From the IMG/VR virus record IMGVR_UViG_2648501437_000028: 15,331 nt of DNA; one strand, 5' to 3'. The stretch is from a virus (Duplodnaviria; Heunggongvirae; Uroviricota; Caudoviricetes). The notes under the pieces are model-generated. The model did no database searches. It saw only the letters and a list, made by a program, of their open reading frames with translations, and had not been told where the DNA came from. Of the stretch, positions 1 to 15,331 are shown in pieces (the stretch's first letter is position 1; each line of letters opens with the position of its first letter). Position numbers and translations under genes: made by a program.

Positions 1-165
1 ATGGCAAAGCCGATCATCACGCTCAATGGCCTAAAAATCGTCATTATGTTGGGAATGCTGGTCATTATTCTCTGCGGTATCCGTTTTGCCGCCGAGATCA
101 TCGTGCCGTTTATTCTCGCATTATTTATTGCTGTTATATATAACTTATTTCGCATAACACATTGA
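1..165 (+). pseudogene. tqsA: 5' fragment of tqsA (AI-2 exporter, YdgG); frame diverges after ~codon 45 and stops at 163-165, consistent with interruption by the inserted element
   Basis: Frame +1 from base 1 reads [45 protein letters not shown], which I recognise as the TqsA N-terminus, then IYNLFRITH-stop. Too short to appear in the ORF track. Confidence 0.55.
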
Positions 166-185
166 TTTAATTAAATAATTAACAC

Positions 186-233
186 CGCAAAAAGTGCCAA
201 AAATCGCAAAATGACTACACCAGTGACTACACC
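186..233. repeat. Phased A-tracts (CGCAAAAAGT GCCAAAAATC GCAAAAT) followed by tandem TGACTACACC x2 (212-221, 224-233)
   Basis: Read directly from the sequence; A5-6 tracts recur with 10-bp phase (bent-DNA signature), and a 10-bp direct repeat sits ~80 bp inside the inferred junction. Confidence 0.45.
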
Positions 234-344: not shown

Positions 345-609
345 TGGGGATCCCCACCTACCGGAATTTTTTTCCGGTTAAACGTTAATCAGGCTGGTGG
401 GCTTTACCTGTTCGGTAGGTGTTATGATTATCGTAATACCTTTCCCCCAATGGGGTAAAAGCATCAACCGTAACGAAAGTCGTTATGGTTGCCACTGATA
501 CCCCAAATTTGGGTATCACGAGTAAGCCCCAAAATCTGGGTGTTACTCTTACTACCCAAACTACGGGTAGTTTCCGTAGTTTCATGGTCGAGTTGCAGAT
601 CTGCAACTC
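345..609. repeat. Cluster of dyad symmetries: TGGGGATCCCCA (345-356), CCGGAA-T5-TTCCGG (361-377), CCCCCAATGGGG (444-455), GATACCCCAAATTTGGGTATC (497-517), CCCCAAAATCTGGG (527-540), CTACCC-AAACTAC-GGGTAG (552-570), GTAGTTTC x2 (567-583), perfect 20-bp palindrome GAGTTGCAGATCTGCAACTC (590-609)
   Basis: Read directly from the sequence; no ORF here has a credible start or composition. Confidence 0.5.
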
Positions 610-863
610 CCCCATTAACCACAGGCGAATTTCCGCCTTCGGTCATTCCTTAATCATCTGCGTAATCATAATGATTATTCAGCAAGCGCAATTTTGCGCT
701 TTGCTTAAAGTTCAGCGAGTTACCGCGCCGACTTCCTCAAATTGAGGTTTCCGAAAATATCAGCGGGTTAGCGATTAAGCTGACCATTAATTAAACTGCG
801 AAAATGTCGTAGTTGTGAGGGGTGTAGCCAACCCATTTTTGGGCCGTCGGGAATATCAACCAG

Positions 864-1145
864 TTACCGCCGCAACCGCTCCGGCTTCTTCCAGTGGTAC
901 GTTATTTTCTCCTTCTCCCGATACATCTCCACGCGGCGACGGTAGGCCAGCAACTCAAGAACTCTGGTTCGTATGTTGCGCATATCCACGCCATTAAGTT
1001 CTATACCATCACGGCGCATCACCTCAGCAACAACACGCGCATAGTTTTCGGCTGTCACGCTGTCCGGCTGCGTGGCCTGTTCGTCAGCCTGCTGGCTGAT
1101 TCCGGCAACGCGGCGGATTAATCCCGTTATTTCGGCTTCTGTCAT
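864..1145 (-). CDS. Hypothetical 93-aa protein, last gene of the packaging operon
   Basis: ORF track; ATG at 1145 preceded by GAGG; starts 13 bp after the terL stop. No recognisable motif. Confidence 0.5.
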   Translation of the reverse strand: MTEAEITGLIRRVAGISQQADEQATQPDSVTAENYARVVAEVMRRDGIELNGVDMRNIRTRVLELLAYRRRVEMYREKEKITYHWKKPERLRR

Positions 1146-2820: not shown

Positions 2821-3160
2821 GCTCGTCCTCTTCTTCTGTTTCCGGTGGGTTTTTACGGCGGCTTATCGGGTCAAAACCGAGCAAGGAGGCCATTTTTATC
2901 ATCACCCTTTCAGCGTCTGATTTCGCGCTTAATGCGGGGTTTCTGCTCTCGCCGCCCTGACTGTTAACAATGCTGAACCCGCGCGCCGCAAGGTCTGCGA
3001 CGGCTTTCCGGTAAATGGAGTAGTTGACACAATACAGTTCCAGATTGCTCCAGTCGGCGGGGGTCAGGTCTCCCCGTTCCGCAAGCTGCCGCGATTTTTC
3101 CCGCCACTGCTTCACGGCGATGTCATCCAGGTAGGCGGGGGCTTTCGGTGGTCTTGCCAT
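2804..3160 (-). CDS. terS: Terminase small subunit (P27-like size and position)
   Basis: 118 aa directly upstream of and overlapping terL, downstream of HNH; acidic C-terminus. Assigned mainly by position and size. Confidence 0.6.
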   Translation of the reverse strand: MARPPKAPAYLDDIAVKQWREKSRQLAERGDLTPADWSNLELYCVNYSIYRKAVADLAARGFSIVNSQGGESRNPALSAKSDAERVMIKMASLLGFDPISRRKNPPETEEEDELDRLE

Positions 3161-3209
3161 GCTTATTTTTCGTCAGATTATTTTTCAAAAAATTCCCGTG
3201 CATAAAAAT

Positions 3210-3275
3210 TTGAGGAGGCGTTCGGTGCCCGGCGGGGTCGGGTTTGTCCTGAAAACGCCCCCCACCCCGTCATAC
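3210..3275. other. GC-rich block in the HNH-terS intergenic region; candidate cos / terminase recognition site
   Basis: GGTGCCCGGCGGGGTCGGG...ACGCCCCCCACCCCG lies in a ~290-bp gene-free gap between HNH and terS, where HK97-type cos sites sit. Position-based inference only. Confidence 0.25.
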
Positions 3276-3448
3276 AGCCTCATCAGCGATTGCGGAAACA
3301 TTCCATAACCTCGCGGTCACGGTCGGTTAATCGCTTCGCTGTGATGCGTTCTGCGCGTCCTGACGCTTTATCTTTATGCCCTGTTTCCTGTGTCTTCCAT
3401 GCGTCACGCTGCCTTATAAGTCCACGGATAAGGCGGTTTTGTTCCCGC

Positions 3449-4185: not shown

Positions 4186-4520
4186 TTTTCCGCGCCCTCA
4201 CGACAAAGAATTTCAAGGCGTGTCCTGGCGGCATCCGGCAGCGGCTGCCCGATGATATTCAGTACACGCCCCGCCAGCGGCCCCGTACTGACCTTTATCC
4301 GGCTGGTGGCGTTGATGTCCTTCCGGTACCGTATCCAGATCCTTACGGTACCAATCGCCAGCTCTGCGCCCGATGAAATGGCCTCCTTGCTGCTGACCAT
4401 GTTCACGCTTGCCCAGAGTGTGTGACCGTCCTCCCACGTTTCGAGTATTTCGCCGGTTATATCCCTGGTCTGTTTCAGGGTCTGAATCGTTATCCTGTCA
4501 CGCAGTCGCCCTATGTTCAT
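4182..4520 (-). CDS. Head-tail adaptor / head closure protein
   Basis: ORF track gives 4182-4562; I prefer the internal ATG at 4520, which overlaps the portal TGA (ATGA) and gives a ~112-aa product. Identity is by position after portal. Confidence 0.55.
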   Translation of the reverse strand: MNIGRLRDRITIQTLKQTRDITGEILETWEDGHTLWASVNMVSSKEAISSGAELAIGTVRIWIRYRKDINATSRIKVSTGPLAGRVLNIIGQPLPDAARTRLEILCREGAEK

Positions 4521-8757: not shown

Positions 8758-8804
8758 ATTTATTTTTACCCCCTCGTTTAAAAAGTTTTGAGTTGTGCCT
8801 CCCC

Positions 8805-9030
8805 TTGTCTACCTTATCTACCTTAGTGGCCCTCATACCAGTAATGGCGCGGCTTTCAGCGGGGTAGAGTGCTTTTATCCACTATCTACCCCGTGTCTAC
8901 CTCCCTGTCTGATTCAGGTAAAATCAGGTAGAGAGGGTAGATAGTGGGTAGACAGTAAAAAAAGGTTATCTACCTAACTTAATGCACTGAATTAAATGTA
9001 TTTTTCTTTACTCAGGTAGACAGGGTAGAC
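8805..9030. repeat. Iteron array (about 12 copies of GGTAGAC/GTCTACC-type 7-8-mers in both orientations) with flanking AT-rich stretches; putative replication origin
   Basis: GTCTACC 8805, TATCTACC 8813, GGTAGAG 8861, TATCTACC 8881, GTCTACC 8893, CAGGTAGA 8923, GGGTAGAT 8933, GGGTAGACAG 8944, TTATCTACC 8964, CAGGTAGACAGGGTAGACAG 9011-9030; lies immediately 3' of the primase gene. Confidence 0.6.
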
Positions 9031-9045
9031 AGCAATTACAAAAAA

Positions 9046-12351: not shown

Positions 12352-12548
12352 AAGCCTACCCCCTGACGAATACGGGCAGCAAATACCATCACGCAGCCAG
12401 CCGGAGATTGCTGGCGTGCTTCCTGTTCGCTGGTGGCCTCAATGGTAATCACGCGCGGTTGTGCCGTGCTCAGGGCGATAAAACGCCAGATGTATTTATT
12501 CAGGTTGTGCGAGTCCCGCCCTTGCGGGTGTGTGGTATGATTTCTCAT
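12348..12548 (-). CDS. Hypothetical 66-aa protein, first gene of the leftward operon
   Basis: ATG at 12548 preceded by GAGGTAG; it is the 3' part of the 384-aa track ORF, whose upstream extension I reject. Confidence 0.45.
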   Translation of the reverse strand: MRNHTTHPQGRDSHNLNKYIWRFIALSTAQPRVITIEATSEQEARQQSPAGCVMVFAARIRQGVGL

Positions 12549-12583
12549 AGCTACCTCGATACTCTCGTTATCGTTGGTGGTTA

Positions 12584-12724
12584 GAAGCCCCGTTACTGCT
12601 CCAACAGTGCGGGGCTTCGTCGTTTCAATTGCTGAATTGCATGTATCAGCACTTGTGGTATTCACATTACATTTAGGTGAATACCATTTCAAGTCTTTTT
12701 TGGTATTCACTTTTGTATTACACT
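12584..12724. promoter_or_regulatory. Divergent control region: long hairpin GAAGCCCCG...CGGGGCTTC (12584-12618) and operator-like repeats TGGTATTCAC-N11-GTGAATACCA (12656-12686), TGGTATTCAC (12701-12710), GTATTACAC (12715-12723)
   Basis: Read directly; lies between the start of the leftward operon (12548) and the start of the RHH gene (12754). Confidence 0.5.
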
Positions 12725-14113: not shown

Positions 14114-15331
14114 TTATTTTCTTCTGGCTACGGGTAGCGTGGTTACGTTTTCATGTGTTCCCGCCAGTATCCCTAACCGCTCCGTCCACATATCCAGCGC
14201 ATTGCGTTTCGCATCCAGATAACGGGAATGATTATAAACTCGCTGCATTCCTGGCATCTGGTGGCCTGTAAGCTGCTCCACGACATGCGGATCAACGCCT
14301 AAATCGTTCAGCATGGTTGTAAAGGTGCGCCGGATGTCATGCAGTGACCAGTGAGGGTGATTAAGCCTCCTGTGCGCTAATCTTCCATACTGCGATACGC
14401 TGGCCTCCTGTTTCACTTCCCCCAGCAATAAGCCCGTGTGCCTGTTCTGCTCCACCAGCTGCGTGACGAACGGCAGGATCGCTTCCGGTATGGGCCGGAA
14501 TATTGCGACCTTCGTTTTGCTGTGCTCCTTCGGAACGGTCCATAGCATTTCCGTAAAATCCCACTCCCCGATCTCCGATAACCTCAGTTCTACCGTTCTG
14601 GCTCCGAAGACAATCAGGAGGCGGATTAACGCGACGTAGTAAGGGGAGAATATTTTTTTGTCCAGTGCCTGCAATAATTCGCCAAGTTCTTTGTTACTTA
14701 AGACACGTTCGCTTATATCCGGTTTTTTCCCAACGTCCGCAACGTTCAGATCGTCCAGAACGTTGCTGATTGCATAGCGCCGCCTACGGCAGAACTTAAG
14801 CGCCTGTTTGCACGCCTGTAGCACGAATCCGGCAGTAACAGGCGTTCGCTTTGCCACCTGGTCAAAACAGGCCAGCCAGTGCCGTAGCTCGCATTTATCC
14901 AGCGGCATAGCACCAATCTGCTGTATTACGTGATTATTAAGTCGCCTTTTCAGGGCGATATAATCCACGCGGTTTTCCTTTACGTAATACTCAAGCCAGT
15001 AGGTGAGCGCATCGCCAACCGTTACGGGCTTTAACGCTTCCTGTACGGTGTAATTCATCTCATGACGTGGATTTTTCCCCTCAGCCAGCCATGTGCGACA
15101 CTGTGCGGCTTTTTCCCTGGCTGCTTTCAGGCTCAGATCAGGATAACTTCCCAGCTTAATGCGTTCGGGTCGTGTCTCCCTTCCCGTTCCGGCCCTGTAT
15201 GTGAAATACCAGGTCAATTTCCCTGATGTTAAATATTTCACGCTCAGGTTTCCGCCATCACTATAAAACGTGTTTTTCTCCGCTGGCTTACCATGAAGTT
15301 TCCTTAGCAAGGTATCGCTCAGTTTGTTCAT
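14114..15331 (-). CDS. int: Tyrosine integrase (P4-like phage integrase family)
   Basis: 405 aa; C-terminal catalytic signature HDIRRT ... H ... RVYNHSRY (R, H-x-x-R, Tyr nucleophile); ATG is exactly at the window end. Confidence 0.9.
   Translation of the reverse strand: MNKLSDTLLRKLHGKPAEKNTFYSDGGNLSVKYLTSGKLTWYFTYRAGTGRETRPERIKLGSYPDLSLKAAREKAAQCRTWLAEGKNPRHEMNYTVQEALKPVTVGDALTYWLEYYVKENRVDYIALKRRLNNHVIQQIGAMPLDKCELRHWLACFDQVAKRTPVTAGFVLQACKQALKFCRRRRYAISNVLDDLNVADVGKKPDISERVLSNKELGELLQALDKKIFSPYYVALIRLLIVFGARTVELRLSEIGEWDFTEMLWTVPKEHSKTKVAIFRPIPEAILPFVTQLVEQNRHTGLLLGEVKQEASVSQYGRLAHRRLNHPHWSLHDIRRTFTTMLNDLGVDPHVVEQLTGHQMPGMQRVYNHSRYLDAKRNALDMWTERLGILAGTHENVTTLPVARRK

Follow-up and report, generated by a model that had tools for sequence, protein, structure and literature searches.

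The window, a stretch of 15,331 nucleotides from the Caudoviricetes record IMGVR_UViG_2648501437_000028, is a capsid-forming phage satellite (cf-PICI) related to EcCIEDL933 and integrated in tqsA, and the hairpin-rich block close to its left end is the untranslated tail of this island, located between the last gene, which encodes 93 aa (864-1145), and attL. Within this tail a short core (528-612) keeps a constant position at the end of the island operon, is gained and lost as a module, is conserved at 95% identity or more in hundreds of genomes, is combined with different att, ori and cos systems and is dispensable in the prototype EcCIEDL933. It may be a structured element that would act where convergent transcription meets.

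Organization of the island tail

The cf-PICI genes are all on the minus strand, and the operon ends at 864. The tail beyond it is a mosaic of three parts, 156-~493, 494-649 and 620-869, and the features referred to below are as follows.

1-165, plus strand: 5' fragment of tqsA, the host gene into which the island is inserted (the identical locus is annotated in strain FORC_069; O26:H11 11368 is a further carrier of this island)
~150-175: island end attL; homology with other PICI tails begins at ~156
156-493, no strand: block tracking the integrase subtype, with the directly read palindrome TGGGGATCCCCA at 345-356, a hairpin at 360-378 (ACCGGAA-T5-TTCCGGT) and a Chi site at 393-400
212-233, plus strand: direct repeat TGACTACACC, two copies, probable arm-type integrase site
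451-505, no strand: hairpin 1, long, with a core stem at 465-476/480-491 and extended arms at 451-476/480-505
494-649, no strand: portable block of 156 bp containing the core and one small hairpin, missing from the otherwise collinear tails of the EcCIEDL933 and NE122 PICIs (alignment)
497-517, no strand: helix a, GATACCC-N7-GGGTATC, with a variable centre; replaced in L006, L011, L032 and L118
520-548, no strand: helix b, GAGTAA/TTACTC around CCCA-AAATC-TGGG
528-612, no strand: universal 'PICI tail core', matched in 664 of 5,426 complete E. coli genomes
549-582: invariant stretch TTACTACCC (549-557), helix c, AAACTA-CGGG-TAGTTT (558-573), and a 9-nt duplicate (574-582)
590-609: helix d, 20-bp palindrome GAGTTGCA-GATC-TGCAACTC, with almost invariant arms and GATC, AATC or AATT at the centre
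620-869, no strand: four degenerate units of ~48 nt, each a short hairpin (624-637, 686-699, 735-747 and 832-843) and then ..AATATCAnCnAGTTACCG
864-1145, minus strand: last island gene, encoding a small basic helical protein of 93 aa, the constant neighbour of the tail (PHROGs phrog_1561, a family of unknown function)

A preliminary description of the window had drawn attention to its palindromes and dyads, and direct reading of the sequence located those listed at 444-455 (CCCCCAATGGGG), 502-513 (CCCAAATTTGGG), 527-540 (CCCCAAAATCTGGG), 555-567 (CCCAAACTACGGG), 590-609 (the perfect 20-bp palindrome GAGTTGCAGATCTGCAACTC), 664-676 (AATCATAATGATT) and 681-705 (AGCAAGCGCAATTTTGCGCTTTGCT). The alternative pairings CTACCC/GGGTAG and AAACTAC/GTAGTTT and the duplication of GTAGTTTC are likewise present. 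A fifth dyad, CCCATTTTTGGG, also exists, but at 832-843 and not at 829-840 as first given. The CCCAAA-N-GGG dyads had been regarded as one family, which the comparative data dissolve, since the copies are parts of different helices; the copy at 502-513 reads CCCTTTATTTGGG in most relatives, and that at 555-567 has lost its GGG in one lineage. Control by Dam is not supported, as 17 of the 53 variants have AATC or AATT in place of the central GATC of the 20-bp palindrome.

A repeat search disclosed 12 inverted repeats within 150-900, arms of 33 and 26 nt among them, and the exceptional density of structure claimed at the outset was confirmed as far above chance. The fold of 440-640 amounts to -85 kcal/mol versus -45 +/- 4 in dinucleotide shuffles (z = -10.0 for the plus strand, -8.6 for the minus strand and -9.7 with DNA parameters). 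When the whole window was scanned in 200-nt sliding windows (mean z -0.63, sd 1.7), the two most extreme of ~150 were 501-700 (z -9.8) and 401-600 (z -7.9), and 401-700 is the most structure-prone stretch of the window. A search for tRNA and tmRNA found none. The block had been said to contain no credible ORF, and it is indeed non-coding or nearly so, although a plus-strand frame of 86 aa (485-745) is open in nearly all variants and gives a weak signal in a coding test.

In alignment, the segment 156-~493 is nearly base-for-base common to the EDL933 and NE122 PICIs. Because it is shared with the NE122 element, whose integrase is 91% identical to that of the window, it is probably an attP arm. 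In L003 and L004 (integrases 75-77% identical) little of the compared sequence preceding the core can be aligned, and L002, which uses a different att site, has a different repeat, AGGATACC, twice at the equivalent place. Co-variation with integrase subtype beside the crossover site, the behaviour of an attP arm, was found for 156-~493 only and not for 494-649. Hairpin 1 overlaps the left arm of helix a and is present without the core in O157:H7 PICIs (87% identity). On the minus strand its mismatched stem is followed, after a gap of 3-4 nt, by GCTTTT, and it was not called in the terminator scan.

On the other side of the core, the units at 620-869 are decayed gene-end copies that each include a small hairpin. 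They were found by a motif scan and had been missed by Tandem Repeats Finder; the last of them and the stop codon of the 93-aa gene overlap, CTGCGTAATCATAATGATTATTCAG lies inside the stretch at 658-682, and EDL933 has at least six units by the same scan and about seven on visual inspection of the alignment. The stem letters of the small hairpins differ while the shape is kept (GGCG/CGCC, ACGC/GCGT, GTGC/GCAC, CCTC/GAGG and GCGC/GCGC), and these changes are compensatory, but between paralogous copies. TTTC, TTTG or TTATC follows the small hairpins on the plus strand only, and the GC hairpin of L007 was read directly and has no U-tract. As for the 93-aa protein, no match was found in Pfam, NCBIfam or PDB sequences, and its AlphaFold2 model is weak (pLDDT 66), the best fold match having E = 2.8. 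A protein search returned near-identical E. coli hypothetical proteins only, and a scan of genome contigs returned Shigella only.

Distribution and variation of the core

About 12% of the complete E. coli genomes contain a match to the core, in 754 places, and in 646 of the 5,426 genomes the identity is at least 95%; the expectation that the region is conserved across related islands therefore holds for this part of the block. Every context inspected was a PICI tail, with the core in one fixed orientation downstream of the 93-aa last gene. The elements comprise cf-PICIs, Rpp-type PICIs, protease-capsid-fusion PICIs, a helper-embedded satellite and a circular 10.8-kb copy, with varying integrase subtypes, ori iterons and packaging types. 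The functional, transferable prototype EcCIEDL933 keeps the 93-aa gene and lacks the core, which fits an accessory, non-essential role.

Cargo genes on the left side of the core, which encode Abi (253 aa) and a DNA methyltransferase (352 aa), are plus-strand genes and thus convergent with the operon. Left boundaries are nested in L011, L032, L006 and L118, and L012, L020, L032 and L046 have two core copies ~435 bp apart with an inserted iteron cluster between them. Alignment at the sharp edges 493/494 and 649/650 showed no terminal inverted repeats or target duplications. A MITE/REP-like mobile repeat was considered and rejected, as the inspected contexts are all PICI tails in one orientation and neither TIR nor TSD was seen. 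A blastn search of the phage collection gave no match, and the matches in the plasmid collection were mislabelled chromosome pieces and one circular PICI only. No paper was found in a literature search with 16-20-mers of the core, the searched passages of PICI papers do not mention the element, and this hairpin module of ~85-120 bp is undescribed in the literature so covered.

Among 53 unique variants, changes fall in the loops and not in the arms. The best-conserved stretch is TTACTACCC, a predicted unpaired linker without a single change, and this invariance is not explained by a simple terminator or stabiliser and points to sequence-specific recognition. The segment 549-582 can also be read as four 9-bp AAACTACSS units, two direct and two inverted, whose copy number differs by exactly one (9-nt indel in L005, L008, L023 and L024); the 9-mer is not enriched elsewhere in the island.

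Paired cells are Watson-Crick in 753 cases versus 12 G-U. Cells remain paired in 95.8% of cases versus 94.8% in shuffles, and double changes affect 4 of 31 pairs versus 2.5 expected from shuffles, most pairs never varying. The sole true compensatory change among the core helices, A-T to C-G with intermediates, is in helix a. A545G creates a plus-strand U-G pair in 15 variants and G520A a minus-strand G-U pair in 13-17, and a plus-strand bias of G-U pairs, apparent with few sequences, was gone with 53 variants.

Possible roles of the core

Comparison of the islands indicates that the core is neither an att arm nor an origin, crr or cos site, because it is found with different integrases, ori iterons and packaging modules. 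The options named in the preliminary description included an immunity RNA of the P4/P1 antisense type, a packaging signal and a second origin of replication. The dense hairpins and the duplicated motif plus its complement would speak for them, and so would the second iteron cluster that another PICI lineage has in its tail, adjoining the core. All three are very improbable. The covariance-model scan that the same description had asked for gave only noise (Rfam, E<=10, 150-900), and at the gathering score no Rfam family, C4-type or other, matched the window or six related loci. The block is a 3' tail and not a leader, and it has no complementary target in the rest of the island above chance level (exact matches of at least 11 nt for 440-720: three, versus 1.8 expected). 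A better candidate region for an immunity-type RNA is 12480-12720, which adjoins Icd-like genes.

Against a packaging signal, a cos or pac site should be specific to one terminase system, and the core is common to cf-PICIs with HNH/TerS/TerL and to Rpp PICIs with lambda-type cos, and is absent from the transferable EcCIEDL933. The lambda-type cos of Rpp-type PICIs lies upstream of rpp (PMC9026076), and the cos of the cf-PICI itself is expected between the HNH gene and terS, at about 3160-3283. Against an origin, the iterons 3' of the primase gene differ among islands (GGTAGAYA, TGTTCACC, TAACCCGC) while the core is unchanged, a comparison that also ruled out a crr-like site. The window's own iterons (GGTAGA) cluster at 8808-9024, with none in 150-870, and the known PICI ori is 3' of pri-rep (PMC6092414).

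We tentatively prefer, at somewhat below even probability, a structured element that lies in the convergent-transcription zone behind the island operon and serves as terminator, insulator or RNA stabiliser. The core would be part of the 3' untranslated region of the helper-induced operon and, in cargo-bearing islands, would also lie downstream of plus-strand cargo genes that face it. Its stacked hairpins might stop or slow RNA polymerase arriving from either side, protect RNA 3' ends and separate island transcription from that of cargo or host; a stable 3'-derived RNA may be a further product. Paired cells that are nearly all Watson-Crick are what is expected if the hairpins must form in transcripts of both strands. 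Consistent with such an element are the constant position, the convergent cargo, the kept shape of the gene-end hairpins, the fixed arms with variable loops, the extreme folding of both strands and the independence from the other island systems. It also agrees with the L002-type tail, where a canonical minus-strand terminator (11 pairs, then TACTTATTGT) stands just beyond the core, which is thus placed between stop codon and terminator. The weak covariation, the lack of strand preference and the L007 hairpin without U-tract count against it, as do the terminator scans. These called no canonical terminator on either strand inside the block; the only terminator-like match in 150-1200 is at the end of the 93-aa gene (861-878), and promoter and terminator hits in the window are no more frequent than in shuffles.

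A DNA repeat array accounts for the variation by a single 9-bp unit no less well than a structured RNA does. As a serious alternative of lower probability, the core could be an array of double-stranded sites for one or more sequence-specific proteins, such as the 93-aa protein, a host factor or a further protein of the island or helper, with GAGTTGCA-N4-TGCAACTC as putative dimer operator alongside GATACCC-N7-GGGTATC and the four AAACTACSS units. Perfect palindromes with nearly invariant half-sites around freely variable centres suggest this, together with the unchanging TTACTACCC, the near lack of G-U pairs, the absence of strand asymmetry and the conserved small basic protein always encoded beside the tail. 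However, that protein has no recognisable DNA-binding fold or family and its gene is kept in EcCIEDL933 without the core, the 9-mer is not enriched in other parts of the island, and the compensatory change of helix a, with its intermediates, is unexpected of a fixed half-site. Both a structured RNA and a multi-protein DNA site, the general alternatives named at the start, are possible. That 528-612 is a dedicated satellite element of an undescribed kind, either a trans-acting RNA with the invariant UUACUACCC/GGGUAGUAA stretch as seed or a cis site for a conserved island, helper or host protein, is rather unlikely; if true, its role would lie outside excision, replication and packaging, for instance in control of cargo or defence genes or in how the satellite interacts with its helper phage.

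We consider it unlikely that a transcript of the plus strand, antisense to the operon, starts at ~430-440 and ends at the small hairpins with T-rich tails; it would be either a small RNA or a structured mRNA encoding a small protein. An extended -10-like sequence, TGTTATGAT, at 420-428 is conserved in EDL933 and NE122, yet the promoter scan calls nothing there. Substitutions in hairpin 1 give plus-strand G-U pairs in the window, EDL933 and L006, and TTTC/TTTG/TTATC is seen on this strand only, but the core shows no net asymmetry between the strands. As to coding, the frame is open in nearly all variants and, compared with the EDL933 ORF MFVVVALMVCVVIMTI..., a hydrophobic ORF of 57 aa reminiscent of type I toxins, the 156-bp block is inserted in frame; by hand count, codon changes between L007 and L002 are 8 synonymous and 12 non-synonymous. 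Conversely, a conserved start codon and ribosome-binding site are absent, the C-terminal parts differ wholly between tail types, the frame has no Pfam or NCBIfam match, and the 52 extra codons of the window break the hydrophobic ORF.

It is equally doubtful that the core has no island function, being a recombination linker or selfish mini-element, with palindromes and gene-end copies as scars left at the cargo boundary by recombination, illegitimate or site-specific, that took place repeatedly. Presence or absence among close relatives, the sharp edges, the nested left boundaries, the paired copies around an iteron cluster and the tandem decayed gene-end copies are in keeping with this, and near-identity (at least 95%) suggests recent spread. 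On the other hand, no terminal repeats or target duplications were recognised, the core is found in PICI tails only, with a constant orientation towards the last gene, and it stays at least 95% identical where the flanks diverge or are replaced, which suggests selection.

Significance and relation to known systems

Much work is devoted to PICIs and cf-PICIs as vehicles of gene transfer and phage defence, but their non-coding tails had not been dissected before. The module of 85-120 bp sits at the boundary between island backbone and cargo region, and its movement is not tied to the modules for integration, replication and packaging. It is a candidate regulatory or insulating element, a candidate marker for PICI ends and cargo hotspots, and a part to keep or remove in synthetic PICI engineering; the finding would be an ordinary one if the core is no more than a terminator or a scar of recombination.

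Among known systems, the tail resembles 3' UTR stem-loop clusters and bidirectional terminators of convergent bacterial genes (e.g. mRNA stabilisers of REP/BIME type) in being untranslated and following the last gene of an operon, and the core resembles REP/BIME-type clusters in its stacked, almost exclusively Watson-Crick palindromes, its non-essential nature and its variable copy number. Unlike in these clusters, the sequence of the core and not its shape alone is conserved (at least 95%, unpaired linker included), the core is limited to one family of mobile elements and the window has no U-tracts. The core is not known to resemble the E. coli REP consensus.

The block shares with P4 CI RNA and the P1/P7 C4 RNAs a satellite or phage context, hairpins and a repeated motif with its complement, but it has no covariance-model match and no island targets, and a 3' tail is not the leader of a regulated operon. 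Like the P4 crr and PICI ori arrays, the core combines short direct and inverted repeats in a cis element distant from the replication gene; its repeats, however, differ from the island's iterons and are unchanged when the iteron type changes. With the lambda-type cos of Rpp PICIs and the cos of HNH phages it has in common a cis position near packaging genes, whereas it occurs in islands with unrelated terminases, is missing from EcCIEDL933 and is distinct in place from the known cos, which lies upstream of rpp (PMC9026076). Operator- or centromere-like arrays (F sopC; heptads of ribbon-helix-helix repressors) are similar in their contiguous direct and inverted units, unit-number variation and adjoining gene for a small basic protein. 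They differ in that the neighbouring protein here, a candidate partner only, has no recognisable DNA-binding fold and occurs without the array.

The island and its tail

Bases 1-900 of the window have an exact counterpart on the chromosomes of E. coli FORC_069 and many other strains, and the annotation of the FORC_069 locus places there a 15.7-kb island with its insertion site inside tqsA. All island genes are on the minus strand of the window, in the following order.

Gene order of the island
Minus strand, first part: integrase, AlpA-like regulator, Icd-like genes, DUF4222 protein, P4-type primase, SSB, PerC
Minus strand, second part: major capsid protein, prohead protease, portal, head closure and connector proteins
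Minus strand, third part: HNH endonuclease, TerS, TerL, then the 93-aa protein (864-1145)

This gene set is that of a capsid-forming phage-inducible chromosomal island, cf-PICI (10.1101/2022.09.08.507074). As the packaging end (HNH, TerS, TerL and the 93-aa gene) is collinear with that of EDL933, the island is regarded as related to the prototype EcCIEDL933. The excised form of a PICI is seen in a complete copy deposited as a circular 'plasmid' (L004, NZ_CP148328.1, 10,790 bp), in which the order is last gene, core, terminator hairpin, attP and int, all co-directional. The 93-aa protein, 63-82% identical between tail types, is in phrog_1561, a family of unknown function; it had no match in Pfam, NCBIfam or PDB sequences, and a fold search with its AlphaFold2 model (three helices, pLDDT 66) returned nothing better than E = 2.8.

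The palindrome-dense block at 345-720 is located in a tail of ~700 bp devoid of annotated genes, with attL on one side and the last gene on the other. All the palindromes listed in the preliminary description are present, at most 3 bases from where they had been placed, and a repeat search disclosed two further long imperfect inverted repeats (451-476/480-505 and 499-531/537-569). The fold energy of 440-640 was -85 kcal/mol, compared with -45 +/- 4 in dinucleotide shuffles. When ~150 sliding windows were folded across the entire window (z mean -0.63, sd 1.7), the two most extreme were 501-700 (z -9.8) and 401-600 (z -7.9).

Fold z-scores of 440-640
Plus strand, RNA parameters: -10.0
Minus strand, RNA parameters: -8.6
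Plus strand, DNA parameters: -9.7

On comparison with other islands, the tail divides into four modules. The segment 156-~493 is nearly base-for-base common to the EDL933 cf-PICI tail and that of an Rpp-type PICI of O157:H7 strain NE122, whose integrase is 91% identical to that of the window, while islands with an integrase only 75-77% identical align poorly upstream of the core over the stretch compared. The direct repeats near att differ as well, TGACTACACC occurring twice at 212-233 in the window and AGGATACC twice in L002, a related locus with a different att site. On these grounds, 156-~493 probably behaves like an attP arm. It includes a palindrome (345-356), a hairpin (360-378) and a Chi site (393-400). 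The palindrome, (T)GGGGATCCCC(A), is followed by a CAGGC(C/T)..CCCACCAG/CTGGTGGG element (window 345-356, L002 8803-8812); both recur in the att-arm regions of PICIs at different att sites, and together may be a common accessory-factor site of attP.

At the other end, 620-869 consists of four degenerate units of ~48 nt, each a short hairpin followed by ..AATATCAnCnAGTTACCG. Because the last one extends over the stop codon of the 93-aa gene, the series resembles a tandem array of decayed gene ends (last codons and stop), each with the downstream hairpin. The hairpin stems change between copies with complementarity kept (GGCG, ACGC, GTGC, GCGC, CCTC, CCCA). The EDL933 tail (L065 3400-3835) has at least six such units by motif scan, and about seven by eye.

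The portable core and its variation

The preliminary observation of a palindrome-dense block was real, and is now narrowed to a defined, portable and highly conserved module of E. coli PICI tails. The 156 bp at 494-649 are absent from the EDL933 and NE122 tails, which are otherwise collinear with that of the window. Identity over the 123 bp at 492-614 is ~93-95% in a 10.8-kb circular copy filed as a plasmid and in the inspected PICIs at other chromosomal sites. These sites adjoin a tRNA-Ile gene, clpS and thiM, or fall within a prophage capsid gene. The universal part, 528-612, was matched in 664 of 5,426 complete E. coli genomes, in 646 of them at 95% identity or more. The orientation of the core is constant, always downstream of the 93-aa gene, and its left boundaries are nested in four loci (L011, L032, L006 and L118), such that the minimal shared element is 548-609. 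Within the literature searched the element is apparently undescribed.

E. coli genomes, IMG/VR contigs and metagenomes together supplied 53 distinct variants of the core, and their comparison revealed that loops are free to vary and arms are nearly fixed. Helix a (497-517) has at least five loop versions, the tetraloop of helix c (558-573) reads CGGG, CCTG, CAGG or CTGG, and the loop of helix d (590-609) is GATC, AATC or AATT. With regard to the mutually exclusive pairings proposed earlier, AAACTA/TAGTTT is formed in 99% of cells counted, with isolated mismatches only, whereas one lineage breaks CTACCC/GGGTAG. Only helix a shows true compensatory change, with A-T replaced by C-G in three variants and single-step intermediates present. 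Variation across the 53 variants is small, with 95.8% of cells paired versus 94.8% in shuffles and 4 double-change pairs versus 2.5 expected. Strand support is split, with 15 variants carrying A545G, which favours the plus strand, and 13-17 carrying G520A, which favours the minus strand; a plus-strand G-U bias suggested by an early, smaller sample was gone in the larger one.

Replication, packaging and immunity sites

Replication iterons are found 3' of the primase gene. They read GGTAGAYA in the window and TGTTCACC in five other islands, the latter being the type I repeat of P4; a sixth island combines TAACCCGC with a replication protein of the DUF927 family. Where the iterons are TGTTCACC, the primase gene itself contains a further, inverted pair. 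In islands with TAACCCGC iterons a second cluster is present in the tail, with 5-6 iterons arranged as two opposed sets, and in L012, L020, L032 and L046 this cluster lies between two direct core copies ~435 bp apart; it may be a crr-like or second-origin cassette, and the window has no second cluster of this kind. Chi sites (GCTGGTGG) number 14 in the 15.3-kb window (6 plus, 8 minus), against a mean of 0.42 in shuffles, none of 200 reaching 14; their abundance suggests selection for protecting linear or concatemeric island DNA from RecBCD. In L002-type tails a Chi site is directly right of the 20-bp palindrome (CACCCACCAGCC).

Origin, iteron clusters and Chi sites
8800-9035: replication origin 3' of the primase gene, ~12 iterons GGTAGAYA, two inverted sets around an AT-rich centre
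L006 12528-12653; L012 4680-4825; L020 1197-1342; L032 9710-9855; L046 1195-1340: second iteron clusters
393-400, 1524-1531, 4302-4309 ... 14452-14459, both strands: examples of Chi sites

The immunity RNA, packaging signal and second origin proposed in the preliminary description are largely excluded for this island, and that the core is any of these is highly improbable. As an origin or P4 crr-like site it was rejected, being unchanged across islands with different iteron types, and the tail of the window contains none of its own iterons; according to PMC6092414 the functional PICI ori is 3' of pri-rep. The core is common to islands with unrelated packaging modules and absent from the transferable prototype EcCIEDL933, which argues against packaging; for Rpp PICIs, PMC9026076 places the lambda-type cos upstream of rpp. 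Its occurrence with differing integrases likewise excludes an integrase-specific (att) sequence. No Rfam family matched at gathering score in the window and six related loci, an E<=10 scan of 150-900 in the window gave only noise, and no complementary target beyond chance was found within the island, which argues against a P4/P1-style cis immunity RNA. The link of the 20-bp palindrome to Dam did not hold, its central GATC reading AATC or AATT in 17 of the 53 variants.

Elsewhere in the window, the second most structured spot is 12480-12720 on the minus strand (z -6.1 in the scan, -5.6 refolded), inside or beside the Icd-like genes, with three GTGAATACC copies (two direct, one inverted) and a strong GC hairpin. 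Rfam gave only sub-threshold noise there; a search for a candidate P1 C4/P4 CI-like immunity RNA would do better at this spot than in the tail. A 120-bp gap (3160-3283), between a 60-aa ORF after the HNH gene and terS, is where the predicted cf-PICI cos site would be expected by analogy with HK97-type HNH phages.

Transcriptional context and competing explanations

Tails of the common L002 type have a canonical minus-strand terminator just beyond the core, which places the core there within the 3' untranslated region of the island operon. In the window no terminator was called inside 345-720, and across 150-1200 the single terminator-like match falls at 861-878, where the 93-aa gene ends; GCTTTT follows hairpin 451-505 on the minus strand. 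Left of the core, cargo genes for an Abi protein and a DNA methyltransferase run on the plus strand, converging with the operon, and the small gene-end hairpins have T-rich tails on the plus strand only. From this arrangement, the core appears to be bracketed by signals facing both directions. The reading put forward, tentatively, is that of a putative transcribed structure in the convergent-transcription zone ending the island operon, where it would serve as a terminator, insulator or stabiliser and possibly give rise to a 3'-derived RNA.

The helices are almost purely Watson-Crick (753 cells versus 12 G-U), as expected if hairpins form in the transcripts of both strands and equally expected of palindromes in double-stranded DNA. 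A protein-binding array in double-stranded DNA is a serious though less likely candidate. The predicted unpaired TTACTACCC (549-557) is unchanged in 53 of 53 variants, and a possible reading of 549-582 is as an uninterrupted run of four 9-bp units AAACTACSS (two direct, two inverted), whose number shifts by exactly one in several lineages; both features point to recognition by sequence, not by shape alone. It is doubtful that the module is a functionless recombination linker or scar.

Equally doubtful is a putative plus-strand small RNA or small-ORF transcript. The plus frame 485-745 is open in nearly all variants, and the 156-bp block is an in-frame insertion (52 codons) that keeps and extends it; however, it lacks a conserved start and ribosome-binding site, its C-terminal part is unrelated from one tail type to the next, synonymous changes are only weakly in excess, and neither Pfam nor NCBIfam gave a match. 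In NE122 there is a shorter version of the EDL933 hydrophobic ORF with a shared C-terminus (...DFLKLRFPKISAG), and the frame annotated by PGAP is another one. In EDL933 itself (L065 3328-3501, plus strand) the same frame as in the window would encode a 57-aa hydrophobic peptide (MFVVVALMVCVVIMTIPKNNIFVVFLCP...) starting inside hairpin 1 (451-505 in the window), an arrangement similar to that of a type I toxin.
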